Translations under genes and position numbers: made by a program
DNA from: Craspedostauros australis
Taxonomy: Eukaryota
Assembly (NCBI GenBank): GCA_030167865.1
Contig: JALAGF010002092.1
Coordinates: forward strand, 1-44,169
DNA: 44,169 nt
Reading direction: 5' to 3'
Notes under the pieces: model-generated
What the model saw: the letters and a program-made list of their open reading frames with translations, nothing else
Told to the model about the DNA's origin: nothing
Database searches by the model: none
Shown: one piece after another, positions 4,101 through 27,363 of the stretch
How the letters are laid out: the number at the start of each line of letters is the position of its first letter
Numbering within the stretch: the first letter of the stretch is position 1

Positions 4101-5409
4101 AGTTCCTTGTAGTACTTTTCCAGGTACGCTCTTTCCAATTCGCACATCTTCTCGTCGCTGCCGATCTGCTTTGTCGTCATCGGTGTTGGCGTGATCGTGA
4201 TTGTGAAGTGGTTGGCATATTGTGGTTGACAGTGAAGCAGCGAGGATGGTGATGTTTTTAGCATGAGCATGAGTTTGAAGTCCTTCGAGGCATTGACGAG
4301 GACCGGTGGTCCACAAATGATCGCTAGCATATCCTCCTGCGGTTGCCGCTGCTGGTGCTGCTACGAATACTACTGCTTACCTTGGATGACGCTTGCTTGC
4401 GCATCGGATCGTGCTTGCTGTGACGACTCTTTCGGCTCGATGGCTTGGAATGATGCGATTTGCTGCGAGTCTGCGCGTCATCACTGCGTGGCAAGGCCTG
4501 TCTGCTTGATCCGTCTCTCCGGAATGCTTTGTGCAGCAGCGCATTCGTGAGGCGCGACTCGAGCCGATTGGATTCGCCATCGGACGGTGGCTGGCTGTCT
4601 CCAAAATCGCTGGATGCCACAGAGTCTTCGAGGTTCGACTGCTCGTCGGCATCGTACCCATCCGTGCCGACGTCATCCGAGGAATACATCGACCTTGTGC
4701 CTTCATCCGAATCGTCGAAACCATCCGACGATGGAATGGCGCAAAGTCGTCGGCCCATCGGCATGCCCAACGGGCGGGTGTAGACGAAGACCGGGTCATT
4801 GTTGTCGTTGCTAATCGTGCTTTTGCTGTTGTTCGTATGATAGATGTTGCAGTACCATTGAGTAGATTGAATGACGAGAGGGTGGGTGCGTGAGGCGACA
4901 TCAGTGCGATTACAATACTCCAGATGCATGCAATCTTTGAAGCGAGAACAGTGCGATCATGAACGCTGATGGTGCATCATCAGCATGGCTCCGTGATGGT
5001 TGCATTGCGCCGTATCATCCTTTGGCTAGCAACAGATTCCGCATTCAAACCACCTTGCGGAGCAGCGCTCGCATACAGTGACGTACCTTGGTTCGATGGT
5101 GGTGTGATCGACGACCGGAAACTCCCCTCTCGCTGCGGCCTTGGCCTGTTGGATCTTGGCAGTCTCGAGGAATCGTTTGCCCGTGACATTGTAGGCTTCA
5201 CGCGCCTCCTCCATGGCGTCCTTCTCCGCGGCCTGCTCTGCCCGTGCGATCGAATCAAAAACCGATTCATCGAGGGACATCATGTCCACCATCTCCGAGT
5301 TGCGCCTGTGTTTGGATCGTCTCGAATCCGAGTCACTGCTTCCCACGTGATCGATCGTGTATCGCTGTGGTGAGCTAGTTTGGCTCGATACGTCGGAGAC
5401 CTCCAACAT
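1141..5409 (-). CDS. TDT/SLAC1-family (tellurite-resistance/dicarboxylate transporter) anion channel-like membrane protein, 7 exons
   Basis: Exons assembled by hand; all introns GT..AG with matching phases: 5409-5087, 4810-4381, 4165-3439, 3206-3139, 2871-2834, 2600-2290, 2090-1141. Spliced protein has a long disordered N-terminus, then about 10 hydrophobic segments with ELSNPTTSTPAG, PDPGWFPNTVGIAYAA, APVCFISLSAPS and FSPAHVAFIFPLLSH (TDT-like P.WF.P.VG and AF.FP motifs). Start codon (5409) and first two exons are less certain than the core. Confidence 0.8.
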
Positions 5410-7094
5410 CGTTGATTGCTTTTCGACGCTTGTGTTTGATGTTGCTATTGCTGCTCTCGATCTTGTGATCGCGGATGGCAATGCACGTTTGCAGCTACGT
5501 GATGTAGAATACGATCTACTCGTACGTAATGTGATGGATCTTGTTGTACCGTTGCTGTGTCACTGTCTTCCGTCCTCTATCGTGCCTTGCTTGTTGAGTG
5601 AGAAAATGACTCAGGATCTGTTGCAAAGAATCTTGCGCGGATCTTATGGAAGGAGCTGATGCTGTCGCTGATGTCGATGTTGATGCTGATTTGGTTGTTG
5701 GAGAAACCACCAACGTTCAGATCCTTTCTCACGAGAGGATGCCACCCGATGTTGATCCGCACATGGGAGTGTTGGATCAACCACTTGGAAATGCTCTGGC
5801 CGCACAGGTGATGGTGATCTTGATGTTGATGGCGCTTGCCATTGGTCAGTCCTCCTGCATCGACACGAGTCGCTTTTGGGTGATGGGAAAAGGCCGGAAG
5901 CAGCAGCCCATCTCGCATTGGGGGTCACCACGACAACCCGACATGAGATCTTGCAAGCGCGTTTCGACGAGGGGAACAGGATGGAAACACCTCGCTGCAG
6001 AGTACCGATGGTCGCCGCACTTGTAGTCGTACGACTACAAGTACAGTGCGATGCGAGATGACACACGGCGTGAGTGCGCAAGTCCTGGACGGAGTCGATC
6101 TTCCTTCGTCAGATCGCCACAGCGTGCTTCTTGTTGGTTCCGTGATGGGTACGCTGTGTGGCGTCGCTCCGTTTTTATCGTTGGTGCACTCTCACCTCTT
6201 GATTTTGTGACATGCCTCCGATGTTCCGGCGTTTCCACGCGCCGACTCCAACCAAAACATGTCTCAAGGCGAGGAACTCTGGAAAATTGTATCAACGCAC
6301 CTGGAATAGAATGTCGCTGCGACATGGAAAAGAGAACAGCGGCCTGGCGAGGATTGCCACGATGGACGCAGTGCGGGAGTTTTGTGCCAAAACGCTCCGG
6401 AAGGGAAGAAATCTCAGAGACCCGTTGACCATTTTCGGCGACCTCTTCCGCTCCTGTGGGAACATGCAAGGGTGGCCAAAACCCAAACCGCCCAACCGTT
6501 CGTAACGCAACGAGAAAGTCATCGAGAAAGGAGTGCGTTTGGTAGGTCGGACGAGTGGGAGGCGATTGAGTAACTGCAAGTTGAACACACCTCCCCATGG
6601 ACAAACTGATCATCTTGTCAGATGAGCTGCCGGCATGGCGGGATCATCGCCCACAACAAAACGGAAAGCACCGGCATGCATGCCATCGAAGACTTCTCTG
6701 TCTGGGTCTGTGCAAGGACCATCACCCTTCCACCGCAGTGTTGGCTTGTCTCGCGATGGCGGAAGCGAGAAGAGCACCATTCTTGACGTTGCGAACCGTT
6801 GCGTCACAAAAGTTCCGCACCCACGATGACACGGGGGTGTGATGGTGCAGGAATCAGCAGAGTGTCGCCAAAGGGAGACGAGTCCTTCGCTCTTTGGGGG
6901 TGATGAGGGATGGCATTCAATGGCGACCAACGGTGTGACGTTCCGATGCGATGAGAGCCACTGGACGGGGAAGAGCAGAGGGCGAGGGACGTTGTGTGGA
7001 TTGTGGATACTACTGCATGTACTACCACGAGTGGACCGAACATGGCGCTCGCTTGGTCTTGCTGGTTGTGATCGGCTCCAGTCGTGCACATGAT

Positions 7095-8504
7095 CTAAGA
7101 TTCCATCAACAGGTTTCTTCGACATCTGTAAACGAAGAGAGGCTCTGGATCGTCGATGCCGATGGCCGGAAGATCCACCGCTTCCATCCTCTCAAACATC
7201 TGCCCCATCCCCTGCAGGAAAGCATCGTGCGTCGGCTTGCCACGTCGCTGATAGGAGACCAGAACATCAGCGCTGGGGCTTTGATCCGTCAGTACACGCA
7301 ACGTTTGCAACAGCGGCGTGACCAGCTCCAACATCCAAACGCAGTCCGCAACGAGGATGACATCGATCGTTCCCTTCTGTTCTGCGACGAGTGCAGGAGG
7401 AACCGCGGTGAACCAGTCGTACGCAATGCAGTGCATGGACTGACAACCCGCTTGCTTCCACATGGATTCGTGCCCATCCACGTTGATTTGAATCAACGGC
7501 GTTGCGTGGGGTAGATCCGACAAGATCACCTGTCTTGCGCCAAGCACGCCCGCGACGATGCCGACCAAGCCTGTGCCCGATCCCAACTCCAGCACGTTTT
7601 TGTTGGCGATCTACCGCATGCACATGTACGGGAACGAGAAGACAAGTGTTGAATGACGGGCACAGTAGGGGTGTGCTTGAGGAAGTTTTGAACAAGTGAG
7701 TATGGGCATGAACATGAGCGTGTTGACGAGCTGGTCATTTTGCTATTAACCGCATGGCATCGCATGATGGTCGCACATCGATCCATCCATCCCTCTTGCT
7801 TGCTTGCTTGCAAAGTAACGTACCCAGTCGCTGCTCTGACATTCCATGACCTTCGCCAACAGGATAGCTCCATCCCAAACATTGCCAGCCGTTTCTTGTT
7901 GCGGTTGATTCGTCGCTTCTTGGATCTGAATAAGATAACTAGCGTCTACAAGCTGGTTGCGGATCGCGACGGTTCCATCATATGGAAAGTATCGCCCTTG
8001 TATGGCAAGCATCGGCTTTCGGTTCTGCGTCTCTTCTTCTTGCGGATCTGATCCAGTTACATTGGCCGTCGCACCCGCGACTGCAGTTGGTATTACGCGT
8101 TCTACACGTGATCGTATGCGCCGACCCAGGCATCGAATAATGTCCAGCTCAGCATCGTAGTCTTGCAGTGAACGGAACGCATTCTGTTGCCGATCATAGA
8201 CTTCGACTTGATACGAGGATGATGCCTGCTGCCTGGCCTGGTTGTATACGGTCGCCAACTGTTGTCCGATGTATCGCAGCAGATCGCTTGCAGTTATCTC
8301 CCGGCCTCCATTCGGAACGTCTCCTTGACGTAGGCGTAGCTTGATAGTCGTGCCGCACTGCCCCACATCACCATCAACAGCGGCTTGATTTCTCGTCACG
8401 ATCTCATCAACGTCCACGATGATCATAGCAAGAAGCGGATTGTTGGCGTGCAGCGAGTCTTTCTCTTCTTCATCTTGCTTCGACGCTGCCGTGTTGGCGC
8501 TCAT
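7095..8504 (-). CDS. METTL21/EEF1A-KMT-like (methyltransferase family 16) seven-beta-strand protein methyltransferase, 2 exons
   Basis: Exons 8504-7824 and 7610-7095 (intron gtacgt...cggtag, phase 0). Motifs TAGNVWDGAILLAK, VLELGSGTGLVGI, ILSDLP, YDW, VILVADCVW and SYQRRG are the family-16 signature set. Confidence 0.88.
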
Positions 8505-8683
8505 CCTCGATTTCTTGTGATTGTTAATAATCGATTGTCGATCGTTCAATGTGAATTGTGAATCACCTCCTCTCCATGTCGAAGCATCACGCTCACTCCG
8601 ACAGCGCTTGGCAGGCCAAGATTTCGCTTGTTCCATTTCTTGTTCTCGTTCGTTGTTCCATCTTTTGTGGTCATTTCTCCAAT

Positions 8684-8697
8684 TTTTGGCGCCAAAA
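8684..8697. promoter_or_regulatory. Palindromic E2F-like site TTTTGGCGCCAAAA in the divergent METTL21-like/HELLS promoter
   Basis: Perfect 14-bp palindrome with TTTGGCGC on both strands, about 330 bp upstream of the HELLS ATG; a CCAAT lies near 8785. Function is inferred. Confidence 0.45.
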
Positions 8698-9024
8698 CGG
8701 GTCTGTCCGTCCACCAGAGCATCGGCATTGTTCTCAGGCAAACTGCCGCATTGAACATGGGTGGCGGCGTGGCGTGCGGCGCAGCCAATCACCGCGAAGC
8801 AACCAACACAGCGCCCAGAGTGGCCAAAACCTCCCACCGCCAGCACGCGACAAAACACGAGGTTTCGTGTTTGGGCACGTTGTGGAATGGTGGTGTTCAC
8901 CATTTCGAGTGGTCGAGATGCAGACAAAACGAAAGAGATAACAAACTCACGATACAACCATACGCTCAGAGACAAGCAACAAGAACAACGACGACACTCA
9001 CCAACACCAAAGCAAGTGGCGATC

Positions 9025-12000
9025 ATGGCAACCAAGAACGCTTCCGACAAGGAGGAGGAGGAGGAGAAGTCCGCGAAGGAACCAATGACTGATTCTGGCG
9101 CAGAGGCCAAGAAGGACAAAAAAGAAGCATCCACCCCAGAAACTCCAGCCAAGACGGAAGAAGACAAAAAGGAGGACGGAGCTTCGTCGGATGCCGATGA
9201 TGAGATTGACAGCGGTGATGTGGAGAGCGACGATGGCAAGGAGGAAGAGGCCATGTTCCAGGCGATGGAGAAGGAGCAGGCGGAGAAGACCGACGACGCA
9301 GAGCAACCCACCGACGTGAAGGCCGCACCCAAGATGCTGCAGCAGGCCTTGGCGGAAGGCAAGGTGGACGTTTCTGATTCCGAGAAGGAGGAGGAAGCCG
9401 AGAAGCTCAAGACCAAGGCTGATGGCAACGAAGACACCAAAGACAATGACAAGGACAAGGCCAATGGCGCTGCGGACAAGAAGGCTTCACCAAGCAAGGA
9501 CCACCACGTCCACGCAAGGGTAAGTCATGCGCAAACGCCCGCATTCTCCAACACGGTTTTGCCTGTCGAATGAGCGCGCACTTCCATGACAACACGAGAG
9601 ATGAATTAGTCGAGAAAGCCTTGCCGTTCAATCAGAACAGCGGAGCATCCACAGCATCATTTTTGGCGCCAATCCCACAATCCTGTCTCCGCATGCACGT
9701 CTCGCATCAACTCAATCAACTGCGTTCATCCACTCATTGTGCTCATTCCACCCATGGCATCCATTACACCCATTGCACTCGTATCCATGCTCCTCATTGC
9801 GCGTACATACATACCATGCACGCCACACGTACCAACTATTATACTGTGCATAACCGCACATACATTCATGCTCGGATGCAACTGACAGGCAAACCAACTG
9901 GACTTCCTGCTGTCGAAGGCATCGGAATACTCAAACTTCATCTCGAAGGATTTGGAAGAGCTGCAGTCCGACATGCAGATGCAGGCGAGGAAGAAGATGG
10001 AGAAAGCGGAGAAGCGCAAGCGCAAGAGCCGCGGCACCGCCAACAGCAACAAGAGGGCGAAGAAGGCCAACGGGTCTGCCAAAGAGCTCCGGTCGGCAAT
10101 TTCCAAGGACAACGAATCGCGGTCCGAAGACGCGGCACCTCCCATCTTCATCCAACCACCCAACCTTGCGGAGGGATGTCAGCTCAAGGACTACCAGCTC
10201 GAGGGTGTGCGGTGGCTGGCGAGTCTCTTCGAGAATGGCGTTTCCGGCATCCTGGCCGACGAGATGGGACTGGGAAAGACGATCCAAGTCATCGGTCTCA
10301 TCGCCCATCTCCTCACGCAGGGCGTGTCGGGACCCTTCTTCGTCGTGGCCCCGCTGGCGACATTGCCGAATTGGGTGCGCGAAATCCAAAAGTGGCTGCC
10401 GGATCAACCGGTCGTGCGCTACCACGGCCCAGCAAAGGAACGTGCCGAGATGCTCAACGGGCCGCTCAATGCGAAGATGAAGAGGGACAAGAAGTTCCCC
10501 ATCATCGTCACATCTTACGAGGTCGCCATCCGCGATAAGAACAAGCTGCAGAAGCTCACACCGCTGACCTACATGATCGTCGACGAAGGCCACCGTCTCA
10601 AGAATCATCGCTGTCTCCTGCTGTCCAGCCTCAAGCACCTAAAGGCAGGCAACCGACTGTTGCTGACTGGAACTCCCATCCAGAACACGCTCGACGAGCT
10701 CTGGAGTTTGCTCAACTTCGTCAACCCGCAGATCTTCGACGACCTGGCGGTCTTCCAATCCTGGTTCGGTTTCAAGGATATCGGTCAGAAGGAGCGTGGT
10801 GGCACGGACGAGGGGGACATCATGCTGGAGCAGCGCAAGAACAATACCGTCACCAAATTGCACGAAATCCTGCGTCCCTTCCTTCTGCGCCGCGTCAAGC
10901 TGGATGTGCTCAAGGAGATGCCACCCAAGAAGGAGATCATCGTCTACTCCGGCATGTCCAAACTGCAGATCGGGTACGCCCAGCTCATCGAGAAGGGAAA
11001 CTTGGTCCTGCGAGATGAGCTCATCCGACAGGGCATCGAAGCTGGTCGCAACCTCAGCAAGTTTAACAAGACCATGAACTTCCGCAAGAACGTCAACCAT
11101 CCGTTCCTGTTCGGCGAACCGATGGATCCGGCGACCGGGGCCCTCATCGGCACCAAGCACCCGCATCTCCTGGTGCGTGCCAGCGGCAAGTTCGCGCTGA
11201 TGGACCGCATGCTGCAACGTCTCTTCGATGACGGCCATCAGGTGTTGATCTTCAGTCAGATGACGGCCATCCTTAACATCCTCGAAGACTACCTCGTGTA
11301 CCGCAACTGGAAGTACTGCCGTATCGACGGCTCCACGAACATCGATGACCGTCAAACCGCCATGGATAAGTTCAACGCCGAGAAAACCAAGGGCAAGGAT
11401 GGCAAGCACAACACGGCAAACGACCGGCAGTTTGTCTTCCTCCTGAGCACACGCGCTGGAGGTTTGGGGATCAATTTGGTAAGTCATGCAGTGCTCTCAC
11501 TTGTGGTGGTGGTGGTGGTGGCGTCTCCCGCTTGCACTATGTAGTTTTGATGTGCGTATTGCATGCCACGCGTCAGTGCTGATGCCCAGCCGTCCTTGAC
11601 CTGCTTCGTTTATTGTGTATGTGGAACGGCATCGATCGTCATCGCGATTGCGACGGCGATGGAAGCATCCAGGTGCCACTGTCGATCTCTTCAAAGATGC
11701 AACGGCAACACCAGCCAACCGTTGCCCAATCATTGCACTAACATATAACAATTGTTTTGGACTCTCCTCTCCCACGCAATACGCACACGTCAACCCGACG
11801 TACATCATGCGCGAACTCCCATGCCATTTCTGGAACGATCCAATGAACAACAGACAAGCGCCGATACGTGCATCATCTTCGACAGCGATTGGAATCCGCA
11901 CGCTGATAGCCAGGCCATGGATCGTTGCCACAGGCTGGGCCAGACACGTCCTGTCGCTGTGTACCGTCTGCTGACATGCAATTCGGTGGATATCCACATG

Positions 12001-12309
12001 ATGGAACGGCAGGTATCCAAGAAGAAGCTTGAACGCATGACCATCGCTGGCGGAGATTTCCGCAAGGCGGGCATGAGGTCGCAGGGTGACATGTCCTTCC
12101 AGAAGCTGGAATCGTTGTTGCAAAGCGACATTGCCGATCTCCAGACCAGGGGACAGGACGTCGAAGATATCCGCATCGACGACGACGAGTTTGAACGCAT
12201 CATGAACCGCAGCACGCTGTTCGGAGACGATCCAATCGCAACGGAGGGCAAGATGTACGACATTATCGATTCTGCTGGTGGAGATTTGCTGGGTGCAATG
12301 ACAACCTAA
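9025..12309 (+). CDS. HELLS: SNF2-family chromatin remodeller HELLS/LSH/DDM1, 3 exons
   Basis: Exons 9025-9519, 9889-11478, 11854-12309 (gtaagt...acag, both phase 0). Motifs LKDYQLEGVRWL, GILADEMGLGKT, IVDEGHRLKN, LLLTGTPIQN, FLLRRVK, NHPFLF, ASGKF, LIFSQMT, LSTRAGGLGINL, DSDWNP.AD.QAMDRCHRLGQTRPV. N-terminal QLDFLLSKASEYSNFI resembles the LSH/DDM1 helix; no chromo, bromo or SANT domains. Confidence 0.9.
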
Positions 12310-12572
12310 TACCAAAAGGTCGTCCTAGTACTAAAGCATGAAAGATAGCAAACAATACTTTAGCAGCATTTTCGAAGTGTGGTACTACTACGAGTTTTCT
12401 CAACCTTTTTTCAGATGGAGCATCTGCGCGTCATCCGCTCTGACAACGCGCTATCGACATTACAAACATGGCATGCAAAAATAAAGCACGTCTTTTACTT
12501 GGATGTGTTATCGAAATACTGCGACACTGGACGCAGCAACGGTATCAAATGTGTATCACCAGCGTTCTTCAT

Positions 12573-15089
12573 CTACAGCTCGTCACTGCCCTGCACCTCC
12601 TTGACTCGATCGGATGGATTGTCGATCAGAACTTGATCGTACGTGCCCCTGGCAACCTCCTCTGTCTCCACCACGGTGATATGCCTGGCCTCGTCGCCAG
12701 CCAAGAAGATCTCCCACGCCTGCGTGAAGCCGGACAGAAGGTTCTGCGCGTACCGGTTGGCATCCCAATACGGGTGCATCGGGTTGCGTTGCAGCGCCGC
12801 ATCGACCAACCGCTTGCGCACATCGCCCAGCTTGGCCTTGTCATTGCCCAACGCGATGGCGATGTCCTCGTACTGCTTGGGTCCGTCAACGGCGTTGAGT
12901 TCCTCGAGTCCCAGGACGATGTTGGCCGATGTCGTGACGCGGGAGCTCATGTCGTCGCCATCGCTGCGCGTGATGATCGGCACGCCGCCGTAGAGGCTGT
13001 CTTGCGCCACGGTGTGTCCGTTGTAGGGGAAGGAATCCAGCATGACGTTGCAGAAGTCCTGGTTGCGCGCCTGGTGATCGAAGGGACTGCGTTCCCATGG
13101 CAGGAAGTGGATGCGGTCGATCAGGTCCTCGCCATCCTGCGGCTTGAAGGTGTTGTACTGCTTCTTGGATCGCGAATCGGTCTCGACGCTTGGGAGACCT
13201 GCGGCTTCGTGGATGTACCGCTGCATGTACGGGACTCCTTGCGAGGGATTCTCCAAAAGACACAGGATGGAGTTTGGCACCTCGCGCAAGATGCGGATCC
13301 AGCTGTTGAGAGTCTGCGGGTTGTTCTTGAGGAACTTGTTGAAGTTGCAAAAGACGATGGACGGTTCCTCGATGTCATCAGCCAGGCACCGATTCTGCTG
13401 CGGCGACCCCGTCCCGATTCTGTATGGCATTTCGGGTGGTGCGTAGTCGTGGGTTGGCTGCTTGACCTCCTTCTGCACGGCATGGCCCTTGCTGAAGAAG
13501 TGGTTGGGCAGGTAGATGAACTTCTCCGTGTAGAGGTACTCCAGATGCGGCGGGGATGTGACCTTGTCCGTGACGATGTAATCGATGTACTGCGCGCCGC
13601 TGGTGCCCAAGAATTCCTGGTGCAGTATCTGCATCGGCGCCGGGTGCAAGGCCATGAGACCTTGCGCTCGTTCACCCTGACGGGCGTAGCCATCCCATTC
13701 CACCAGGATGTGGATATCCTTGCTGTGGATGTACCGCGCCATGTCGATGTGCGATGTCTTCATGTGCTCGACGTCATGGAAGTGGTCCACGTGACCCTTG
13801 ACGCGCTCCCTCCAGTCGCAGCCACCCATGCCGACCTTGATGAAGAGATCGTTATCCGCCGGTCCCAAGGAGAAGACGTGCATCTCGATCTTCGAACGAT
13901 CGTAGAATCGAAAGATGTCCTGCGACAGGTACAGCACCGCCTTCGAATTGAAGCCGCTGCCGACGAAGCCGACGCGCAGCTTGAAATCTGGCTTGCTGGC
14001 ATCCTCGACGTACCGCTCGCGATCCGCCTTGGGGTTGTAGGGAAGATCCGGCGGAAGGGGATCCAGCGAACCCGCAGAACTGACGCGCGCCATCATCTCA
14101 TCCATCGCGGCCGAGGACTCGGCGGAGTAACGCTTGAGGATGGGTGGGACGGGATACCCCAGCATCATGTGCGGGTGCACCGACGTGGCGCGGTTCCACT
14201 TGATCGTCCCACCTTCCTCACGACGGTTGAGGGCGGCCTCGCGTTCCGTGATCTCAATGATGCGCTCCATGTCGCGGTCGAATGTGGTGCCGTTGAAGCC
14301 CCAGTCCAGCACCATGGTACGGCAGTAGACGGCGTTGCTGCACGATGGTCCCAGCTTGAAGTCCGACCGACGGCACGACAGCTCGAAGATATCGGCACAC
14401 GCCTCGTAGTTCTTGCGCGAGAAGAGCGTGCTGCCGTACTCGTAGAGATCCTCCGGCGTCTTGTCACCGAACGCCTCGGCCTGCGACGCACCTTCTGCAG
14501 GACGGAACTTGTTTTCGCCATTTCGTTTGGGTCTGTCCAGCTTGGAGAGTCCATCATCAACGGGCGTCTTCCTCTTGGCGCCAGCAGAACTCTGCATCTG
14601 GCGTTGCAACAGCTGCGCCTCCGGGTTGTGCGGATCCACCATCAACGCCTGCTCTAGGTACTTGGCCGCCATGTCCTTCTGATCGCGCTGGAAGGACTCA
14701 CGCGCGATGAAGACGAAGCCGTCCGCGGCGCGGTCCTGCACGGCGTAGCACTGCATGAAGCCACCGAAGGCGTCCTGCACGGAGTAAGCGTTGCTGGAGG
14801 CCTCCTGCAGCAGCACCGACCTCCAGAAGTACAGGCTGGCGTCATCGAAGCTGCCGGCGGCGAACAGCTCTCTGCCCTTCTCCAGAGATTCTGTTCCGTC
14901 CAGCTCGATCTCGTGAACGCTCAGGGCTTGCGCGGTTGGCAGGATGGAGGCCGCCAGCGATGCGCACAGCGAGACCGCTGCAATCGACATCAGCAGGGAC
15001 ACCGACACGACCATCATGGCATTGAGGATCCTGGACATGAAAGTCTTGGAGCTGCGGGAGACTGCACTCCTCTGGGAAGCGACCTTCAT
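12573..15089 (-). CDS. OGT/SEC-like GT41 glycosyltransferase with few TPRs, N-terminal signal peptide and C-terminal SDEL
   Basis: Single ORF; first ATG 15089 (listed start 15170 is TTG). GT41 motifs SVHPH, LRVGFV, DIHILV.WDGY, ALHPAPMQI, GTSGAQYIDYIVTD, YTEKFIYLP, FCNFNKFLK, LDSFPYNGHT..DSLYGGVPIIT, SSRVTTS. Hydrophobic N-terminus ending AQA-LS; ends QGSDEL*. Confidence 0.9.
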   Translation of the reverse strand: MKVASQRSAVSRSSKTFMSRILNAMMVVSVSLLMSIAAVSLCASLAASILPTAQALSVHEIELDGTESLEKGRELFAAGSFDDASLYFWRSVLLQEASSNAYSVQDAFGGFMQCYAVQDRAADGFVFIARESFQRDQKDMAAKYLEQALMVDPHNPEAQLLQRQMQSSAGAKRKTPVDDGLSKLDRPKRNGENKFRPAEGASQAEAFGDKTPEDLYEYGSTLFSRKNYEACADIFELSCRRSDFKLGPSCSNAVYCRTMVLDWGFNGTTFDRDMERIIEITEREAALNRREEGGTIKWNRATSVHPHMMLGYPVPPILKRYSAESSAAMDEMMARVSSAGSLDPLPPDLPYNPKADRERYVEDASKPDFKLRVGFVGSGFNSKAVLYLSQDIFRFYDRSKIEMHVFSLGPADNDLFIKVGMGGCDWRERVKGHVDHFHDVEHMKTSHIDMARYIHSKDIHILVEWDGYARQGERAQGLMALHPAPMQILHQEFLGTSGAQYIDYIVTDKVTSPPHLEYLYTEKFIYLPNHFFSKGHAVQKEVKQPTHDYAPPEMPYRIGTGSPQQNRCLADDIEEPSIVFCNFNKFLKNNPQTLNSWIRILREVPNSILCLLENPSQGVPYMQRYIHEAAGLPSVETDSRSKKQYNTFKPQDGEDLIDRIHFLPWERSPFDHQARNQDFCNVMLDSFPYNGHTVAQDSLYGGVPIITRSDGDDMSSRVTTSANIVLGLEELNAVDGPKQYEDIAIALGNDKAKLGDVRKRLVDAALQRNPMHPYWDANRYAQNLLSGFTQAWEIFLAGDEARHITVVETEEVARGTYDQVLIDNPSDRVKEVQGSDEL

Positions 15090-15638
15090 CTTATCTCTGT
15101 GTGTGGTATGGTGTGGTATTGTATGGTGTGGTACGGTGTGATATTGTTCGACTGTCGACTGTCGATGCAATGGGATCAGCTGTTGTTGTTCTTCAAACAG
15201 CTCTGTTGCTGCCGCTGTGATGGCTCTTGATGTGTCGGGTTGTGGTCACTTCTCTCCTCTTCTCTCGTATTCTCAACTCTTCTGGGCTCTCCGTGTTGTC
15301 CTCCATCGTGTTCTTCTCTGTGCGTTGTGACTGTTTTCGTGTGCGTTTCAACAACTGCGACCACAGCGGCGAGTGCGAGTATCTTTGCCGCCAAAATTGG
15401 AATTCTCTCTCTTTTCGTCTGTCTTTCCATACGTTGGATGATTAGTCGATGTAGTCATACGCCGGACATCGTCACGATCAACCATTTTTGACGGTGTGCT
15501 TCACTTTTTTGCGCGAACGAACTGCCACCATCGTCGACATCGTCGACCCGCCAACATCATCGACACCAGAACGGATTGCCTTCCTTGACAACCGTACTCA
15601 ACGTATCATACCCTGCCACCATCCCGAGTGAGACGACA

Positions 15639-17069
15639 ATGAAAGTGAAAGCACTGTCAAGGAGCAAGGCCTCCACCCAGCGCGAATGCGTCGGAGATCT
15701 GCGACGTCATGATCGCAACCTCGACCCCACCTACCATCCCATGCAACGGCCGAGAGAGTACACGCGTGCCGTCACATCCGCCAAGATCGAGCGCATGTTC
15801 GCCAAGCCGCTGGTCGGCAACCTGGGCAACGGCCATGCGGATGCCGTCTATCACACCGCCATCTCGCGCCGCACGCTGCTGCCCATGATCAGCGGTGCCG
15901 CCGATGGCTGCATCGCACTGTGGGATCTGGCCACGCGGGCCAACGTGGCGACGATCAAGGGTGCGCATTCGCGGGCGGTGTCCGGCATCGTCTTTGGATT
16001 GGACCAGGACTTTTACACGTGCAGCGTGGATGGCAAGGCGCGGCGGTGGTCCATCGGCGATGTCATGCATGCCAATTCGGCAGATCAGCAGCTGCTTCAG
16101 CGGACGAGTGGTGGCAGTGCCAGTGGCGGTGCCAGCGTAGATGCCTCCGTGGCGCAGCCGCTTTCGACATGGCGCATCGACGGCTCCTTCCAGTCCATCG
16201 ATCATCAGTGGGAGAATCCGCAGTTCGTGACGGCATCGGATGAGGCCGTTCAGGTTTGGGATCCCGAACGCAACTCGCCCATCCAGACGCACGATGATCT
16301 GTGGGGATCCTCCGACACGGTGCAGGTGGTGCGTTGCCATCCCGTGGAATCGCATCTGGTCGCCAACTGTTCGGCGGATCGTGGCATCGGGTTGCATGAC
16401 ATCCGGACCGCGTCGGCCATGAAAAAGACGATATTGCGCATGCGATCCAACGACCTGCAGTGGAATCCTATGGAACCGCTCAACTTCGTGGTCGGCAACG
16501 AAGACCACCAGGCCTACACGTTCGACATGAGGAAGCTGTCGCAACCCACCCACATCTACAAGGGACACACGTCGGCCGTCATGTCCGTCAGCTGGGCGCC
16601 GACGGGCAGGGAATTCGTCACGGGCTCGTACGACAGGACGATACGCATCTTCTCCCTCACGCGCAACAACGGCGTGTGCCGCGACATCTACCACGCCAAG
16701 CGCATGCAGCGAGTCTTCACCGTCAACTACTCCCTCGACAGCACGTACATCATCAGCGGCAGCGACGACACGAACGTGCGCCTGTGGAAGGCCAACGCCA
16801 GCGAGAAGCTGGGGCAGCTCACAACGCGCGAGGAAGCCGCCATGCGGTACCGCCAGGCGCTGGTGCAGAAGTTCCAGCATCTGCCGCAGGTCAAGAAGAT
16901 CCACAGAGCGCGCAAGCTGCCCAAGGTCATCAAGAAGCAGACGCATATCGGCATCATCCAGAAGGAGAGCGCGGAGCGCAAGCAGGCAAATCGCGTCAAG
17001 CATTCCAAGCCCGGTGTTCACAAGTTCGTTCCGGAGCGCAAGAAGGTCGTTGTGCAGCAGGTGGATTAG
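15639..17069 (+). CDS. DCAF13: WD40 SSU-processome protein Sof1/DCAF13
   Basis: MKVKALSRS...RNLDPTYHPMQRPREYTRAVTSAKIERMFAKPLVG, WNPMEPLNF, GREFVTGSYDRTIRIF, YHAKRMQRVF, SGSDDTNVRLWKANASEKLG and a Sof1-type C-terminus. Confidence 0.95.
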   Translation: MKVKALSRSKASTQRECVGDLRRHDRNLDPTYHPMQRPREYTRAVTSAKIERMFAKPLVGNLGNGHADAVYHTAISRRTLLPMISGAADGCIALWDLATRANVATIKGAHSRAVSGIVFGLDQDFYTCSVDGKARRWSIGDVMHANSADQQLLQRTSGGSASGGASVDASVAQPLSTWRIDGSFQSIDHQWENPQFVTASDEAVQVWDPERNSPIQTHDDLWGSSDTVQVVRCHPVESHLVANCSADRGIGLHDIRTASAMKKTILRMRSNDLQWNPMEPLNFVVGNEDHQAYTFDMRKLSQPTHIYKGHTSAVMSVSWAPTGREFVTGSYDRTIRIFSLTRNNGVCRDIYHAKRMQRVFTVNYSLDSTYIISGSDDTNVRLWKANASEKLGQLTTREEAAMRYRQALVQKFQHLPQVKKIHRARKLPKVIKKQTHIGIIQKESAERKQANRVKHSKPGVHKFVPERKKVVVQQVD

Positions 17070-18393
17070 AATAGAATGGAGTCAGGTGGAGTGGAGTGGA
17101 GTATTGCATGGTTGAGCCTGTTCGAGCATGTTTGAACATGGGAAACATGATGTGGGGGTCTGTAACGAGGAATAACGATCCGTAGGTAGGGCGTTTCATC
17201 CAAGCTCAGACTTGGCTTGGTTCTTGCGTGTGGTTGCATTTCGGATCTTCGTTGTTCTGGATAGAATTGCCAACAGAACATGAGGGGCGGGACATGACAC
17301 CCCACGTCAAGGCAGCCGGCGATGTGGGAGAGCCGAAAAGACTACTCCACTCATGAGGCACTCTGCTGCAATCAATCATGCCAGTCTGCTGTGCCATTCT
17401 GTTCCTATCATCATGTCATTCCCAATGGTTCACAGTTGCAAAGATGCCCGCAGGCTTGTACGTATGAAGTACTTAGTTTGTCGCAGCGGTACGAGCATGA
17501 AGCCCCAATGTATCATGTCAGCGAACCCAAAGGCACGCCCGGAAACAAGAACAATAAGAATTGAAAGTATCGATGTTGGACGCTTGCAGAGACCTGCGGC
17601 ACGTTGCACTTTGCATCGTTCGAGCCAACCCGGTTTCGGAGGTGTTCTGTCACGATCAGTGTGTGCGTGAAGGGAGGTGCGAAGAGAAAGACGAGAAAGA
17701 TCTGCCACACAACAACCGTTTTGTGAGCACCTTCCCACAAGCGCGAAACTGCTCGTGCCACATCAAGCCAGCAAGATTGGAACGAAGATTGTCAGCGCTT
17801 CGACTAATACGACTCACCCAATTTCCTTCGACTAAATGTCCCGTGCGAACACTTGGGGTCTTTAGTGTCACTTGACACGTTGAAGCGACCACAGAATTCA
17901 TAGGAATCCAGTCATGTCCAATGTCCTTTCTCCCCTATTACATGTGCCCTTGAAAGACCCACATGTTTGTTGGGCCGCGTCCGAATAGCCCGCCCAACGA
18001 TCGCGCTTGGAGACGTGACGACGTGGATGGCCATACACATCACGAAGCGAAAGGCGTTTGGCCCAAACGGCGCCTGGGCGAAATAGTTTGCGCGTTGTGC
18101 ACACAAATACGTTGCGTTTTCGCCCAACGAAAGAGACAGCGCAACAACGACGCGCGGTAAAATCACGCACAGGAAAGGAACGCTTGGGCACAGCGAGAAG
18201 GTGTGCTTCACTCTCACGACAAACAAACCATCTCTGTCGCTGTGTTGGTGGGACGATCGACCGCTCAACCAAGTGTTGCTCTCCAATCAGTCTCTGTCGC
18301 TCGCTGACTTGACTACCTGCCTGACTGGCTGATCCATTGATCAACCGCTACATCGTCACTCGTCGTCTGATTGAACCTGAACAGAGTCGCAAG

Positions 18394-20298
18394 ATGACAG
18401 AAGTGATCACTGCAACGACGACTGTTGCGCAACCAGCGATCGGACCTGTGTTGGAGGCAACTCCTCATACAGAGACAGAGACAGAGATCGCTGCGGAGAC
18501 TACATTGAACACAACTGTGGATACTGCCGCGCAGACTGCCACAGAGACAGAAGAGGAAGACGAAGAGGAAGACGAGGAAGAGACAACAGAAGAGATCAGA
18601 GACGAGACGATGAAGAAGCTGAAGACGGTGACGCCCACCATGATCTCGGTCGAGCCGGATGCCATGTCTTCGAAGCCGGTGAGCCAGCTCAGCGCCCTGA
18701 GTTCCCAGTCCATGCACTCCACGACGTCTCCCAACTCCAACTCCAAGCCGTCATCTTCCAAGACGAGATCCAAGTCGAAGACGACCAAGTCCAAGAGCGG
18801 CAAGAAGCAGCGATCGCAGGGCTTGGAGTCGTCGTCGCACCATCGCAAGTCCAGGAAGAGCAAGGCCACATCGCGCGATGGATTGAACGGAGACACGGAC
18901 CACGACACGATCGAGACCTCACCCTTGAGCGATGTCAGCGATCACGTGGCCCTCGGCAAGTCCAAGCATCGGTCGCGGCACAGCAGCAGCGGTCGTCGCA
19001 AGAGCATCGGCAAGGGCAGCAACCACAGCGGCAAGAAGTCGCGTGAGGGATCACCCAAGACCGTCACGGCGGGAGGGCTCACGCGAAGCCTCAGCGAGGA
19101 CGAGCTCAACGTGTCGGCAAAGTCGTCCGCATCCAGCAAGCACAGCATCGCAAGTGACGACGACAACCGCCACAACGAGGAGGACATTGGCGACATTGAC
19201 GACGCTGATGAGTTCGCTTGCGACTCGCCGCATTCCAAGGAGGGATGCCCTGAGCCAGCGACGGCGCCAACGCCGATACAGATAGCGTCTCCCAAATCGT
19301 CAACCCGCAAAAAGACCGACAAGAAGGCGAAGAAGAAATCCAAGGACCGCTCCAAATCGAAGGAACGATCCAAGTCAAAGGAGAGGTCTAAGTCAAAGGA
19401 AAGGTCTAAGTCGAAGGAGCGCTCCAAAGCGAAGGAGAGATCGAGAAGCAAGGCACGCTCAAAGTCCAGGGATCGGCTGGATTTGGCAGTGGCGAATGGC
19501 GCCTCACCTCCGGCGCCTCCTTCCGCCAAAGAAAGACGCCGCCAGATGAAACGATCCAAAAGCGAACGTGTCGTGTCCTTGAGCAGCCAGCGATCCTTGA
19601 TCAGTTCGGACGGCAACGACAAGTCAAAAGGCGACGCATCCACCGCGGACACTGCCAACGCCATCCCGGTATCGCCGCATTCGCCTTGCCGCTTCCAGAA
19701 CACGCGATCCAAATCCGCGCGCCTGCTGTTTGGCGACAAATCCATCAACGCGCCCGATCTGCACTGCGTTCTCGAGAAGAAGGTGGAGTTCGGTTCCATC
19801 GAATGGCGGGAGTATCCGATCGAGCTGGGCGACAACCCCTCCTGCAGCGCGGATGGCGGACCGCCGCTCACCATCGGCTGGAACTACCAGCACATTGAAT
19901 GGTACGGCATCGACGAGTTCGAATCCCTTCGCGGATGCGGCGACGTCCTGCAGCAGTCTCCCAACGCGAATGACCCCGCCGCCAATGAGAATGCGGCCTA
20001 CCAGCGCGCCGTCTGCACGGGCGATCTCATCATCCCGGCCTCCATACGGCTCAAGCTCCTGCTGCAATCGGGATACAGCATGGAGCACATCGACGGCGTC
20101 ATGGAGCAGATGGAGATCATTCGCAAGCAACGCCAAAAGACGTTGGCCAGCATCAACACCACCAAATGGAAGGTCTTCGGAAAGCTCAAGACGACGATCA
20201 AGAAACAAACGAGTAGCAGCGCCGTCGACGCGACGAGCAGCAGCTCCTCTGCCAAAACAAAGAAGAGACGAGGATTCTCGTTGTTCCGCAAAAAATGA
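18394..20298 (+). CDS. Uncharacterised Ser/Lys-rich low-complexity protein with a C-terminal 'V.F...REY...LGDNPS...GPPL.IGW' domain
   Basis: Long ORF with coding-like codon bias; acidic N-terminus, basic SK-rich middle, then KKVEFGSIEWREYPIELGDNPSCSADGGPPLTIGW...R.KLLLQSGYS...IRKQRQKT, a module I recall from many diatom hypothetical proteins. Confidence 0.8.
   Translation: MTEVITATTTVAQPAIGPVLEATPHTETETEIAAETTLNTTVDTAAQTATETEEEDEEEDEEETTEEIRDETMKKLKTVTPTMISVEPDAMSSKPVSQLSALSSQSMHSTTSPNSNSKPSSSKTRSKSKTTKSKSGKKQRSQGLESSSHHRKSRKSKATSRDGLNGDTDHDTIETSPLSDVSDHVALGKSKHRSRHSSSGRRKSIGKGSNHSGKKSREGSPKTVTAGGLTRSLSEDELNVSAKSSASSKHSIASDDDNRHNEEDIGDIDDADEFACDSPHSKEGCPEPATAPTPIQIASPKSSTRKKTDKKAKKKSKDRSKSKERSKSKERSKSKERSKSKERSKAKERSRSKARSKSRDRLDLAVANGASPPAPPSAKERRRQMKRSKSERVVSLSSQRSLISSDGNDKSKGDASTADTANAIPVSPHSPCRFQNTRSKSARLLFGDKSINAPDLHCVLEKKVEFGSIEWREYPIELGDNPSCSADGGPPLTIGWNYQHIEWYGIDEFESLRGCGDVLQQSPNANDPAANENAAYQRAVCTGDLIIPASIRLKLLLQSGYSMEHIDGVMEQMEIIRKQRQKTLASINTTKWKVFGKLKTTIKKQTSSSAVDATSSSSSAKTKKRRGFSLFRKK
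19351..19476 (+). repeat. Coding 18-bp tandem repeat, 7 units encoding SKSKER-like hexapeptides
   Basis: tccaaatcgaaggaacga / tccaagtcaaaggagagg / tctaagtcaaaggaaagg / tctaagtcgaaggagcgc / tccaaagcgaaggagaga / tcgagaagcaaggcacgc / tcaaagtccagggatcgg; differences in the first four units are all synonymous. Confidence 0.9.
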
Positions 20299-20866: not shown

Positions 20867-22255
20867 TTATAGGTACAGTCCTTCCGGGATATTTCCCTTC
20901 TTGCGATACAGGGCCTTCTCCTTGGCCTTGACGAAATCTTCCTGGCACACCTTCATACGACGTTCTCGCAAGGCAAGCATACCGGCCTCCGTGCAGACGG
21001 CCTTGATGTCGGCACCGCTGAGCTCATCCTTGGCCATGACGAACTTCTCCAGATCGACGTCGTCGGCCAGCGTCATGCGGCTCGTGTGGATATTGAAGAT
21101 GTGGCGCTTGGTTTTGGTGTCGGGCAGCGGGAATTCGATCTTTCTGTCAATACGTCCCGGACGGATGAGGGCGGGGTCGAGCGATTCGATGCGGTTCGTG
21201 GCCATGATGACCTTGACGTCGCCGCGTTCGTCGAAACCGTCGAGCTGATTGAGGAGCTCGAGCATCGTGCGCTGGATCTCGCGCGTTCCGCCGGAGTTGG
21301 ACTCGTAACGCTTGCTGCCGACCGCATCGATCTCGTCGATGAAGACGATGGTGGGCGACAGGTCGTCGGCGACGCGGAAGAGCTCCCTGACCAGCTTGGG
21401 ACCGTCGCCGAGGTACTTCTGAATGAGCTCGGAACCCACGACGCGCAGGAACGTGGCGGAGGTTTGGTTGGCCACGGCCTTCGCGAGCAGGGTCTTGCCA
21501 GTTCCCGGTTCACCGTAGAGGATGACTCCCTTGGGCGGCTTGATGCCGATGTCCTCGTAGAGCTCCGGATGGGCCAGCGGGAGCTCCACGGCCTCCTTGA
21601 TTTCTTGGATCTGCTCCTCCAGTCCACCGATGTCGGCGTAGGTCTCCAGCGGCGCCTTCTCCACCTTCATGACGGAGACCATCGGATCGGTGTCATCCGC
21701 CAGTATCCCCACCACGCTCATGGTTTTGTTGTGCAGCAGCACCGAGCTTCCTGGATCCAGGAGATCCTGGTTGACGGACGACAGGATGTTGACGTAGTAC
21801 TCGGGCCCCACGGAGGAGCTGACGATGGCGTGGTTGTCGTCGATGAGCTCCTCCAGCGTTCCCACTCCCAGCGGCGACCCGCGCAGCTCCTCGAGCTTCT
21901 CGCGTTCCTCCTGATCGCGTTCCTCGCTGGGCTTGAAGACTTCGTGGTTGCGTATGAATTCTTCCTCCAGCAGCAGGAAATCCTTGACGCGGTCCAGCTT
22001 GAGCAGCCGCAGCTTGCATTTGGAGGACGGCACGACGGTGGGCAGCTTGTTGAGGCCCGAGGGGCCCTTGCGTCGTCGGCGGCGTCCCTGGCGGTTGGTG
22101 CTGGCGGGGCGTGGCTCGAAGCGCTTCTTCTTCTTCTTGCGCTCCTCCTCCTTGTTGTTGTTGGCGTTGTTGGCGTTGTTGCCGTTCGCGTTGTTGTTGT
22201 TGTTGGAGGGTGGGCCGGAGCCGTCCCCGGCCATTCCTCCTGGCATGTTACCCAT
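20867..22255 (-). CDS. PSMC1: 26S proteasome AAA-ATPase regulatory subunit 4 (Rpt2)
   Basis: [105 protein letters not shown]-terminal PEGLYL (HbYX tail) and N-terminal MG. Confidence 0.98.
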
Positions 22256-23201
22256 CTTGCCTCAATTCACGTCGATGCGAGTGTGGTTCAATATTGTTGC
22301 GCCGTGCTTGATTGCGGGTGTGCTGGGCTGTCTTGTATCAGGGGATGTGTGATGAACGGCGCCGCGCTGGTATGGTCCGGATTGTGTGAGATCCAGAGCG
22401 CCATGGTCGGACTTGGCAACAGAAAAACGAGACCGATCAAAACCACAGATCGACAAACAAACAAAAAAGAAGTCACTCGATCTGCAAAGAAGTTTGGGAG
22501 AAAGAGGGAGAGCTTACGCACACAACAATCGGACAAGATGACACAAGAAGATGGATTGAATTGGCGACTCATTCGATTACATAAGATTGAAACTACGATT
22601 TCGAAACGCTCCCGACGCTTCCACGCGCCAATCGGTCTCGTTTTGACGTCGGAGAATCATGAAGATCACGTGGGACACGGGGGAGTGAATGGTTGCGTGA
22701 TTTTAATTATGATGCCGAACGCGAGGTCGCCTTCTTTTTGCGTTTCGCGGCGGCCGTTTTGCCCGTTGTTTCGTTTCGTTTCGTTGGAATCGTCATCCTT
22801 CTTGGCGCGTGGTATGGCGTGGCATGGTGAACCAGAGTGCGAAAGCATGCGAAGGTGCGTGGAAAGGTGAAAGCGGGTAGATCACCGAACCACACAAAAA
22901 CAAAGACACAGGAAGCTTGCTTGTTGACCCAACACTCTGCCTTGACGACAACCCTCTCTGCCGTCGCTCGTCGCTCTGCAACGTTGCAAAGCATTCCAAG
23001 ACACTTACTTGGTCGCAGCCTTTGATTACATTCACACAATACAATAGGATAGAATACAATACTTCGAATTGCTCTCCGTTGCGCGAGCATACGATCTACT
23101 TCATTCACCTGTGTGTTTGATCTCATTTCATCTTCATCAACATCACCAACAAGGAAGCGTTCCAGAAAGGACCCAAGGAAGCAGTAAGGGCAACGGCCAC
23201 G

Positions 23202-25319: not shown

Positions 25320-25465
25320 TGGAAAGCCTGAACGACGATGCGATTACGAGCACTTTACCAACATGCCAATCTAGAGTATCGCAATCCATTCCAGTTTGTT
25401 CATATCCTCTGGTTAAGAGAGAGACTTATCTCTGCTACAATTCTCTCAGCCTGCACTACCATCGT

Positions 25466-26193
25466 TCATGACCGTTTTGCTGGGTTGCGGGTCACAAAAT
25501 CCCACAGCGGCTGTTTCTGGATCCTCGAGATCATGGATTCGGCCCACGGAACAGCAAACTGAAGCGACGCGACCTTCGTGGGGATGGGGCACTTGTCGAT
25601 CACCTCTTCCAGGCATTTCTCTCTGGCCTTCTCCGACAGCGTTTCGTCTTGAAACCGCGCGGCAGTAGCCATGTACACGCCAGCATTGGCGAGCTTCAGG
25701 TCGCTTCCGATGAAGGCTTGGACGTCGTCCTGCAGAGACTGGATTCGCAGGAACTTCGACAGATGGCTCAACGCCACTGCATTCGACGTGGTGATGCGAA
25801 ATTCTTCATCTCCGTACAGTAATCCAACAACGCAGGAAAGTACTTCCGCGATTCCGGATCCAACCTCAACCTCGTCCCGTATCCGCCGCCCATCTCGGCG
25901 TAGAAGATGTTGGCAAAGTACACGCTGCGGCGCGCCCCGATGCCAACGATCGCGCGGTGAACGTGGTACGTGTGATGTTCGTGCAGCGGCGCGGAATGCA
26001 CCTCGATCACCCAGTCGCTGAAGCTGGTTTCAGGGTCCATCCTCCAAGTCAGCGGTTGCTCACCAAGGCTCTCTCTGCTCCAGAAGGTCACCGACGTCCC
26101 AGCATCCGAGGAATCGTCGCTCATCGTGCCATCATCATCGTTGTCATCCGCATCGTCTCCGTGAAAACGGCCCACGTGGCTCCATCTCGTCAT
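25466..26193 (-). pseudogene. BTB/POZ-domain gene split by a 1-bp frameshift near 25819 (pseudogene or sequencing error)
   Basis: Frame 1: LTWRMDPETSFSDWVIEV...YHVHRAIVGIGARRSVYFANIF...FPALLDY. It continues in a shifted frame as LYGDEEFRITTSNAVALSHLSKFLRIQSLQDDVQAFI. The minus strand reads GATTACTGTACGGA where GAT TAC CTG TAC GGA would give a continuous BTB domain. Confidence 0.75.
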
Positions 26194-27363
26194 GGTTGCG
26201 ATGATTCAACCATTGATTGTACTCGCACGACTACAATGCGCGGGTGTTTATGGCTGCGCCTGGCTGTGCCTGTGTGTATGGTGTGTATGGTGCGTACGAC
26301 TATGGTCGATGATTCTCAACTGCGTTGTAACTTCAGGCGACAGCATCAAACTGCGTGCCAAAACCGCATCCATTCGGAAGGAACGTGGAGACATCACGTT
26401 TGCGACTTCAATGATATTGAAGCACGATGGAATGCGTCACCACCGGAGCAAGAGCCACGAAGAAGCGGGCCGCAGTCTTGTGGGTGCGATGGGCGGTTCC
26501 TTGATCGTGCAAGAATCGGTTGGAGCATACTCGTCCCTTGGCCAAGCAAAAAGATGATACGGAAAACATGTGTCTCCCGTTTCCCAAGATTGGCCTCTCA
26601 AACCCCAACGAGAACGAAATGGTGTTCAATAATGCAAGTTAAGCAAAAGATCGTAGTAGAGTTGCAGCGTGTCTACCATACATGTACTAGAACATGACCC
26701 ACACATACACAAGGCCCGTCGTCACACACGAATCACAAACCGCAAGAGGAGCAAGTCCCTCGAGAGTCGAAGCAGTCTTCGTGTGGGATAGCGATTGTTG
26801 CGTTGCAAAGCGTTCTGCGGAAACCTCTGGACTTGCTGGCGCCATACATGTACGGAAGACAAGATCAACCGTTCTTGTGGGATAGCGGACACCGAAGCGA
26901 GGTGATCAGTGGGGCAAACAAACAGCCTGGGTTGCGTTCAATGGCATGTGTGATACTTGCTGGTGTGATACTTGTGTGATGGGTGAAGGATAGCGTTGAG
27001 CATGATGGGAGCGAGGCATTACGATGTTGGCCTTTGGCTTCGAAAGGAGTGAACATGTTCATTCACGAGTAATCTGATTGAGTCATGGATACCATCACAC
27101 GATGGAGATGTTCGGCGACAGCCACACAAACGATCGTGTTTTCTTGATCGCACCCCATGATCCTGTTTGTGTGGTTTGCAAACCTGAGGAAAGATTGGTT
27201 TTGCGATGATCCAACACGAACACAAATCGTCAGGGGAAGCAGAAGCCCATGAACGTTGACCGCTTGCCTCATCATCATCATCATCATCACCACTGTCGTC
27301 GTCGTCGGTTGGCTACATTGTTGCAATCAGAAAGTTGGTCAAAGGAGAGACACGCTGTGCAAC

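Follow-up and report, generated by a model that had tools for sequence, protein, structure and literature searches.

The characterized eukaryotic members of glycosyltransferase family GT41, namely OGT/SEC and SPINDLY (SPY), are described as nucleocytoplasmic. EOGT (family GT61), POFUT1/2, and POGLUT1 are soluble residents of the animal endoplasmic reticulum (ER) that carry a signal peptide plus a KDEL-like tail and place a single sugar on secretory proteins. These enzymes act on folded EGF or TSR domains and belong to families other than GT41. To our knowledge, the enzymes that start O-glycans on the wall, adhesive, and mucilage proteins of diatoms are poorly known. Some stramenopile GT41s have been placed in an "intermediate" clan (Kumar et al. 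2023, PMC10027727), and UDP donors plus new activities have been predicted for ochrophyte GT41s (Mazéas et al. 2024, PMC11468063). Like the protein described below, the GT41s of these stramenopile groups combine specificity residues of mixed type with predicted UDP-sugar donors and may have new activities. In the passages of the two papers compared here a signal peptide, ER retrieval, or lumenal location is not mentioned, and "signal peptide" gave no matches in the supplements of Mazéas et al.

We analyzed contig JALAGF010002092.1 of the diatom Craspedostauros australis (GenBank assembly GCA_030167865.1) over its full 44,169 nucleotides, called the window below. It encodes a GT41 protein that a preliminary description, made from the letters alone, had read as an OGT-like enzyme retargeted to the ER lumen. 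The protein belongs to GT41 and carries conserved targeting signals. We give somewhat better than even chances to the full mechanism proposed below, in which a conserved diatom GT41 subfamily would be an ER-resident, active transferase moving a sugar without an N-acetyl group from its UDP donor to proteins. The features of the gene and protein are as follows, with human OGT equivalents in brackets.

12573 to 15089, minus strand: GT41 coding sequence, a single uninterrupted frame of 838 amino acids plus TAG.
14922 to 15089, minus strand: predicted signal peptide, residues 1-56, with a basic n-region, an h-region at about 21-51, and heuristic cleavage after AQA.
14226 to 14897, minus strand: about 4.5 TPR-like helical hairpins in an AlphaFold2 model (residues 65-288), including a linker of low confidence at 171-191.
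14286 to 14294, minus strand: N266-G-T268, the sole N-glycosylation sequon of the protein.
13479 to 14201, minus strand: N-terminal catalytic lobe, residues 297-537, with H307 (H498), K383 (H558), D466, E492 (G654), and L494 (P656).
13260 to 13388, minus strand: C568 and C610, which co-vary by count and are candidates for a lumenal disulfide.
12666 to 13373, minus strand: C-terminal catalytic lobe, residues 573-808, with K585 (Q839), K588 (K842), L612 (L866), H672/R675 (H901/R904), Y689 (C917), H692/T693 (H920/T921), and D697 (D925).
12573 to 12587, minus strand: SDEL and the stop codon TAG, a KDEL-type ER retrieval signal at the C-terminal end.

The leader and its cleavage site were called by hydropathy and the (-3,-1) heuristic. 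The hydrophobic stretch at about residues 21-51, which has a top 11-residue Kyte-Doolittle mean of 2.41 and contributes to a predicted helix at 17-47 in the structural model, is closed by AQA-LS at residues 54-58, just as the preliminary description had stated, and the SDEL-stop it reported is likewise present. Outside the leader the highest 19-residue hydropathy window does not exceed 0.82. In-frame methionines stand at positions 1, 18, 25, 26, and 34 and then at 112, with none between the last two. Among the 75 open reading frames of the window that begin with ATG and encode at least 120 residues, the GT41 gene alone ends in xDEL or xEEL. The composition-based chance of a terminal DEL is about 3.6e-4.

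Retention of both signals in orthologues had been proposed as a check of ER targeting, and the check came out in its favor. The homologue set comprised the best 120 of 324 matches, which are 49-70% identical to the query, and those carrying organism names are all diatoms (Nitzschia, Cylindrotheca, Seminavis, Attheya, and Epithemia). The N-terminus could be assessed (was intact) in 98 of these proteins and the C-terminus in 114, and 148 animal-OGT and bacterial GT41s served as controls. An h-region scoring at least 1.9 was found in 93/98 homologues, and the n-region was net positive in 81 of these 93. At the stricter threshold of at least 2.2, 87/98 homologues scored positive versus 3/148 control GT41s. 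A terminal xxEL closes 91 of the 114 homologues (73 xDEL, of which 30 are HDEL, 9 xEEL, and 9 other xxEL) and none of the 148 controls. The retrieval tetrapeptide takes 25 different forms across the homologues, a spread more suggestive of selection for the motif than of its passive inheritance. The tail is of the retrieval type also used by presumed ER residents of the same genome, identified by family and sequence: a BiP-like Hsp70 ends in DGEL, a second Hsp70-family protein in EDEL, and calreticulin probably in GEEL, after an intron. The same genome gave six ERD2-family matches. Among these ERD2/KDEL-receptor-family matches L032, L034, and L035 were noted as two pairs, each on one contig (C3462 and C4863), about 2 kb and about 7 kb apart.

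A further line of evidence comes from the sequon, which lies in a short family-specific insertion (DWGFNGT) and is kept as N-x-S/T at the N266 position in 111/117 covered homologues. In the Phaeodactylum tricornutum N-glycoproteome, B5Y558/PHATR_44040 is listed as modified at N234, the equivalent sequon (PMC8678454, Tables S1/S2, row 58), with a localization probability of 1, a posterior error probability of 3e-7, and three spectra. At charge 3 the m/z given, 602.26635, corresponds to the peptide with a gain of 2.988 Da (18O deamidation) rather than 0.984, and thus fits the 18O label that PNGase F leaves behind and not ordinary deamidation. Homologues of 812 residues that have the identical peptide at residue 234 possess a hydrophobic leader and an NDEL end. 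On this one external dataset, which is noisy and from another species, PHATR_44040 probably passes through the ER. The cysteines also give a hint of a lumenal location: C568 and C610 are both present in 37/43 and both absent in 6/43 covered family rows with no discordant row, and are absent from four OGT rows, and C239/C250 are gained or lost together with one exception. Leader and retrieval signal in orthologues, the glycosylation reported for the conserved sequon, and the xxEL residents of the same genome together support the ER-lumenal placement made in the preliminary description, and we regard entry into the secretory pathway as highly probable.

Within GT41 the protein stands on the OGT side. 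The Pfam Glyco_transf_41 profile (PF13844) matches with an E value of 1.3e-64 and 218.8 bits versus a curated cut-off of 25. TPR profile matches are weak and under their cut-off, and at E of at most 0.01 only PF13844 and weak TPR families match. GT41 is thus the sole catalytic Pfam match, and the GT61 catalytic domain of EOGT is not among the matches. The AlphaFold2 model (predicted local distance difference test score 88, from a 99-row alignment) contains a TPR region and an OGT-type GT-B fold, for which the top Foldseek matches are all OGT, XcOGT, SPY, or TtOGT. With both lobes present and about 4.5 hairpins in the model, the complete catalytic region and few repeats of the preliminary description hold. 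So does its placement nearer OGT/SEC than SPY, given E values of 6.6e-53 for human OGT versus 2e-18 for Arabidopsis SPY in sequence and 4.5e-33 versus 4.8e-24 in fold.

The catalytic lysine and UDP-binding pocket of OGT are retained. The catalytic lysine K588 and R675 are each found in 120/120 homologues and H672 in 114/120, whereas H692, the ribose-binding aspartate D697, and Y689 are each found in all 118 covered homologues. The equivalents of H498, L866, H901, R904, H920, and T921 are kept. Loss of K842 or D925 kills OGT (PMC2556091, PMC4703063), and a substrate-assisted mechanism has been described for OGT and SPY (PMC9715652). Retention of these residues argues for a live enzyme with a UDP donor and a substrate-assisted mechanism, and from the conserved sequence we consider activity as a transferase probable. 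The sugar and acceptor sides of the pocket differ. Relative to OGT, K383 replaces H558, E492 replaces G654, L494 replaces P656, K585 replaces Q839, L587 replaces Y841, Y689 replaces C917, and a glycine replaces D554. The new residues are near-invariant (E492 and K585 in 120/120 and K383 in 119/120), whereas the H558 position is His in 65/67 rows outside the family. Such near-invariance fits redesign rather than decay.

Donor specificity in GT41 has been assigned by two structural studies to three positions, L866/R904/C917 in OGT and K689/A731/Y744 in SPY (PMC10027727). The diatom protein has L612/R675/Y689, which is two-thirds of the OGT signature, and of the SPY signature only the tyrosine matches. 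For a tyrosine at the C917 position, a clash with the N-acetyl group has been predicted (PMC9715652, PMC10027727). The combination of a uridine-type Leu/Arg pair with an N-acetyl-excluding tyrosine is the basis for proposing a UDP-(non-N-acetyl)-sugar donor, and we incline towards a donor other than UDP-GlcNAc. The term "O-GlcNAc-transferase-like" used in the preliminary description therefore stands for ancestry, as seen in clade, sequence, and fold, but not for a demonstrated chemistry, as the sugar-pocket residues differ near-invariantly from those of OGT. The homologues are labeled "protein O-GlcNAc transferase" in the databases, a label that is probably wrong in compartment and perhaps wrong in sugar. 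The near-invariant pocket changes also provide a natural test of the published one-residue (C917/Y744) donor rule.

Compared with OGT/SEC, the protein shares the fold, the TPR plus two-lobe GT-B layout, the equivalents of H498, K842, L866, H901, R904, H920, T921, and D925, and a neighboring clade. It differs in its signal peptide, xDEL, and conserved sequon, in having about 4.5 rather than about 13 TPRs, and in lacking the large intervening domain. OGT/SEC are nucleocytoplasmic and without a leader. The residue differences comprise H558 to Lys, the acceptor-site His of OGT/SEC (Lys in 119/120 homologues), D554 to Gly, G654 to Glu, P656 to Leu, Q839 to Lys, Y841 to Leu, and C917 to Tyr. With SPY it shares the tyrosine at the Y744 position and the catalytic lysine, whereas nucleocytoplasmic SPY has the guanosine-type K689/A731 and Glu rather than Asp at the D925/E752 position. 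Bacterial HMW1C/NGT and XcOGT resemble the diatom protein in a short TPR-like region, an aromatic residue at the C917 position, and non-GlcNAc or uncertain donors. However, these are cytoplasmic enzymes, and the diatom family groups with eukaryotic OGT and not with the sampled bacterial GT41s. On these sequence features the diatom family is a GT41 member that is neither a standard OGT/SEC nor a SPY.

In the mechanism we propose, the N-terminal leader imports the protein into the ER, a step that is strongly supported. There the DWGFNGT sequon would be N-glycosylated, as reported for the Phaeodactylum protein, and disulfides would probably form. The xDEL tail and ERD2/KDEL receptors would then return the protein from the Golgi, giving residence in the ER or cis-Golgi. 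By homology, the short TPR array would hold an extended polypeptide above the GT-B active site, where K588 and the donor alpha-phosphate could bring about inverting transfer in the manner of OGT and SPY. In the last and weakest step a UDP-sugar, most likely one lacking an N-acetyl group (for example Glc, Gal, Xyl, or Rha), would be used to modify Ser/Thr of secretory proteins. The Ser/Thr-rich wall or adhesive proteins named in the preliminary description would be possible substrates. A protein acceptor seems to us the better guess from the conserved layout. By analogy, the diatom GT41 would probably work in the way that animal transferases add single sugars to proteins in the ER lumen, though it comes from a different family. 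A lumenal subfamily would break the usual GT41 topology and would point to a novel route by which secreted proteins are glycosylated. PHATR_44040 is a single concrete target gene in a genetically tractable diatom, and the proposal is relevant to the glycosylation of recombinant proteins produced in Phaeodactylum.

Several observations weigh against this proposal. Terminal EL is missing from 23/114 homologues, including named Attheya and Epithemia proteins and one Nitzschia protein, which may be gene-model errors in part and real losses in part. Because the homologues are related by descent, the counts given above are not independent trials. The N234 glycopeptide is an Asn-Gly site, and Asn-Gly deamidates readily. 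The leader and C-terminus of B5Y558 would follow only from the 812-residue homologues that share its peptide and numbering. A tyrosine at the C917 position is common among bacterial GT41s, and the H558 equivalent matters for activity in OGT and SPY, the fly H596F protein having 3% of wild-type activity. In PMC8678454, 18O deamidation is a search option of the methods, which do not state the use of 18O water. Sites in chaperones are also part of the dataset, one of them an Asn-Gly outside a sequon in Hsp70A. In the table the N234 peptide has charge 2 although the m/z fits charge 3, and PHATR_44040 is predicted as "chloroplast". SPY H495A/F is dead (PMC9715652), and the same position is Lys in the diatom family. 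XcOGT, which has Tyr at the C917 position, still O-GlcNAcylated one substrate (PMC9715652), and thus a non-GlcNAc donor is not proven.

The last finding bears on the chief alternative, in which an ER-lumenal enzyme would still move GlcNAc from UDP-GlcNAc to Ser/Thr as a convergent counterpart of animal EOGT. The nearest characterized relatives are OGTs, and the H498, H920, T921, and D925 equivalents are kept, unlike in SPY. However, the positions of M501, L502, G654, and P656, which we take to surround the N-acetyl group in OGT, are altered across the family. Tyr689 is also predicted to clash with that group (PMC9715652, PMC10027727), whereas XcOGT with this tyrosine gave some O-GlcNAc transfer (PMC9715652). 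On balance we consider retention of GlcNAc unlikely, though it is the alternative to be taken most seriously. Somewhat less likely still is a lumenal transferase with an acceptor other than protein Ser/Thr. This acceptor could be Asn (N-glucosylation as by HMW1C), a lipid, a glycan already in place, or an anionic substrate (sulfated, phosphorylated, or uronic) that K383 and K585 would bind. The TPR plus catalytic layout and the H498 motif are of the peptide-acceptor OGT type, and the family groups with eukaryotic OGTs, albeit in a tree without an HMW1C-type sequence. Yet the acceptor-side H558, Q839, and Y841 are all replaced, N-glucosyltransferases exist within GT41 (PMC9715652), and new UDP-sugar activities have been proposed for brown-algal GT41 groups (PMC11468063). 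The protein might instead have lost catalysis and serve in the ER as a lectin, chaperone, or scaffold binding nucleotide sugar or unfolded peptides, given that the H558 equivalent, the loss of which nearly abolishes OGT and SPY activity, is gone and that the Gly654 to Glu change coincides with the SPY G593S mutant position (PMC10027727). Retention of the K842 equivalent in 120/120 and the D925 equivalent in 118/118 homologues, and the near-invariance of the replacements among homologues with 49-70% identity to the query, make a dead protein improbable.

Two remaining alternatives concern the destination. In diatoms plastid import follows a rule of Phe, Trp, Tyr, or Leu at +1 after signal peptide cleavage, and Leu follows AQA in the query. 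A bipartite leader could thus direct the protein through the ER to the complex plastid or periplastid compartment, with xDEL incidental, and PMC8678454, which predicts "chloroplast", notes that glycoproteins can reach the plastid. Across the 93 leader-bearing homologues, however, Phe, Trp, Tyr, or Leu occupies +1 in just 23, space for a transit peptide is lacking (the median distance from cleavage site to conserved domain is 9 residues, and at most 15 in 78/93), and in 83/93 the 20 residues after the cleavage site have a neutral or acidic net charge. In the query the linker is 8 residues with a net charge of -4 across the next 20 residues, which is not a basic Ser/Thr-rich transit peptide. The short linker and neutral or acidic following residues, together with the xxEL kept in 91/114 homologues, make a plastid destination very improbable. 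Weaker still is the case for an ordinary cytosolic short OGT with a leader that is mis-predicted or bypassed by downstream initiation or splicing. Some homologues (20/93) do have a Met after the h-window and before the first repeat, the gene calls of one cluster begin at an in-leader Met, and a cytosolic isoform is plausible because the gene is the sole GT41 catalytic region found in the assembly. Against this, leader, xxEL, and sequon are all conserved, the Phaeodactylum site bears an 18O-type mark, and the query gene has no Met between 34 and 112. An ER-resident transferase with a UDP-(non-N-acetyl)-sugar donor is the interpretation we prefer.

The GT41 phylogeny suggested with the preliminary description was made from the catalytic domain of 90 sequences (LG+G4, with support by the Shimodaira-Hasegawa-like approximate likelihood ratio test, SH-aLRT, only). 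The tree omits 16 near-duplicates and 17 of the 55 bacterial-type rows that had been picked at random, and takes in 6 rows from a further homologue search; it does not include plant SEC, SPY, HMW1C-type, or XcOGT sequences. All 38 family rows fall into a single clade (SH-aLRT 100). This clade joins the OGT-type proteins of animals, fungi, and ochrophytes versus the bacterial GT41s (SH-aLRT 96), and the OGT side as its own clade has an SH-aLRT of just 90. On this tree the diatom subfamily would be sister to, or derived from, eukaryotic OGT/SEC. P0310 had been taken for a diatom OGT from its clipped name, but the tree placed it with animal OGTs and it was used as an OGT query only.

Distant members at 26-47% identity were obtained from a search of 1.8 billion representatives plus a profile search, and a search of the ESM Atlas returned bacterial GT41 clusters only. 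The distant members share the pocket signature. Of 36 distant rows, many being fragmentary, a hydrophobic leader is seen in 22 and an xxEL end in 15. Since distant members share the leader, xxEL, and Lys/Glu pocket, a move into the ER before diatoms arose can be proposed. We tentatively suggest, at odds below even, that an old duplicate of a eukaryotic OGT was relocated to the ER lumen, probably at this early date, and came to initiate protein O-glycosylation in the secretory pathway by an undescribed route with a third donor chemistry of eukaryotic GT41s (a non-GlcNAc UDP-sugar), and that it is possibly the sole GT41 left in some diatoms. If the latter were true, such cells would be without any nucleocytoplasmic O-GlcNAc or O-fucose. 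A second GT41 catalytic region (standard OGT or SPY) was not found in the C. australis assembly with the Pfam profile, an animal-type OGT, or a bacterial GT41 as queries, a count that is a lower bound in an assembly of 6734 contigs. Three diatoms average two GT41s (Mazéas et al., PMC11468063, Table S1).

Some family members have peculiarities of their own. The deepest members (P0198, P0216, and P0251/P0275) retain a leader as well as Lys at the H558 position, have Val rather than Glu at G654, and lack C568/C610, and both of those with a complete-looking C-terminus lack EL. They possibly represent an earlier, non-retained state. The distant members P0143, P0154, and P0184 have long Lys/Arg-rich tails immediately before a terminal EEL, and the N-terminal TPR module of the 949-residue member P0125 is apparently duplicated.

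In full-text literature searching, a GT41 subfamily residing in the ER was not found described, with incomplete coverage of GT41 evolution studies, in which the leader may already be mentioned, and the Phaeodactylum gene identifiers were found in no paper. An oomycete secretome paper counts GT41s of four species in its CAZy table (PMC4316629), and a pelagophyte study lists one GT41 with a signal peptide (PMC11375080).

The GT41 frame contains no internal stops. It lies between a convergent gene for an SNF2-family helicase (9973-12309, plus strand) and a divergent Sof1/WD40 gene (15639-17069, plus strand), from which it is separated by a start-to-start gap of 549 bases, possibly a shared promoter. 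The gap is too small for hidden upstream exons encoding the roughly nine extra TPRs of a standard 13-TPR N-terminus. One sequencing run, guessed to be RNA, gave a contig identical to 12474-13354 that spans the SDEL codons and stop. A second contig of this run omits a 375-base GT..AG intron at about 11478-11852 in the SNF2 gene, which hints at an RNA origin of the run. When the run was compared with 11000-17500 the 5' part of the GT41 gene was without coverage, and a 37-base match at 15101-15137 came from an unrelated contig and was disregarded. A plus-strand open reading frame of 729 residues (12468-14657), antisense over the GT41 gene, has no Pfam match and was rejected as a probable shadow frame.

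Elsewhere in the window, long open reading frames of 346, 423, 502, and 634 residues in 1141-9254 and 18394-20298 have no clear Pfam family, and one of 1036 residues (40392-43502, plus strand) has a weak Pro/Thr-repeat match and otherwise no clear family. The neighbors in 20867-36863 are housekeeping genes for which no functional link to the GT41 gene was seen. They encode a proteasome AAA ATPase (20867-22255, minus strand), an MFS sugar transporter (23202-25319, plus strand), a JmjC/cupin protein (27364-29211, plus strand), a VWA plus alpha-kinase protein (29547-31739, minus strand), an APC10-like protein (32648-33151, minus strand), and a DnaJ protein with DnaJ-X (35361-36863, plus strand).

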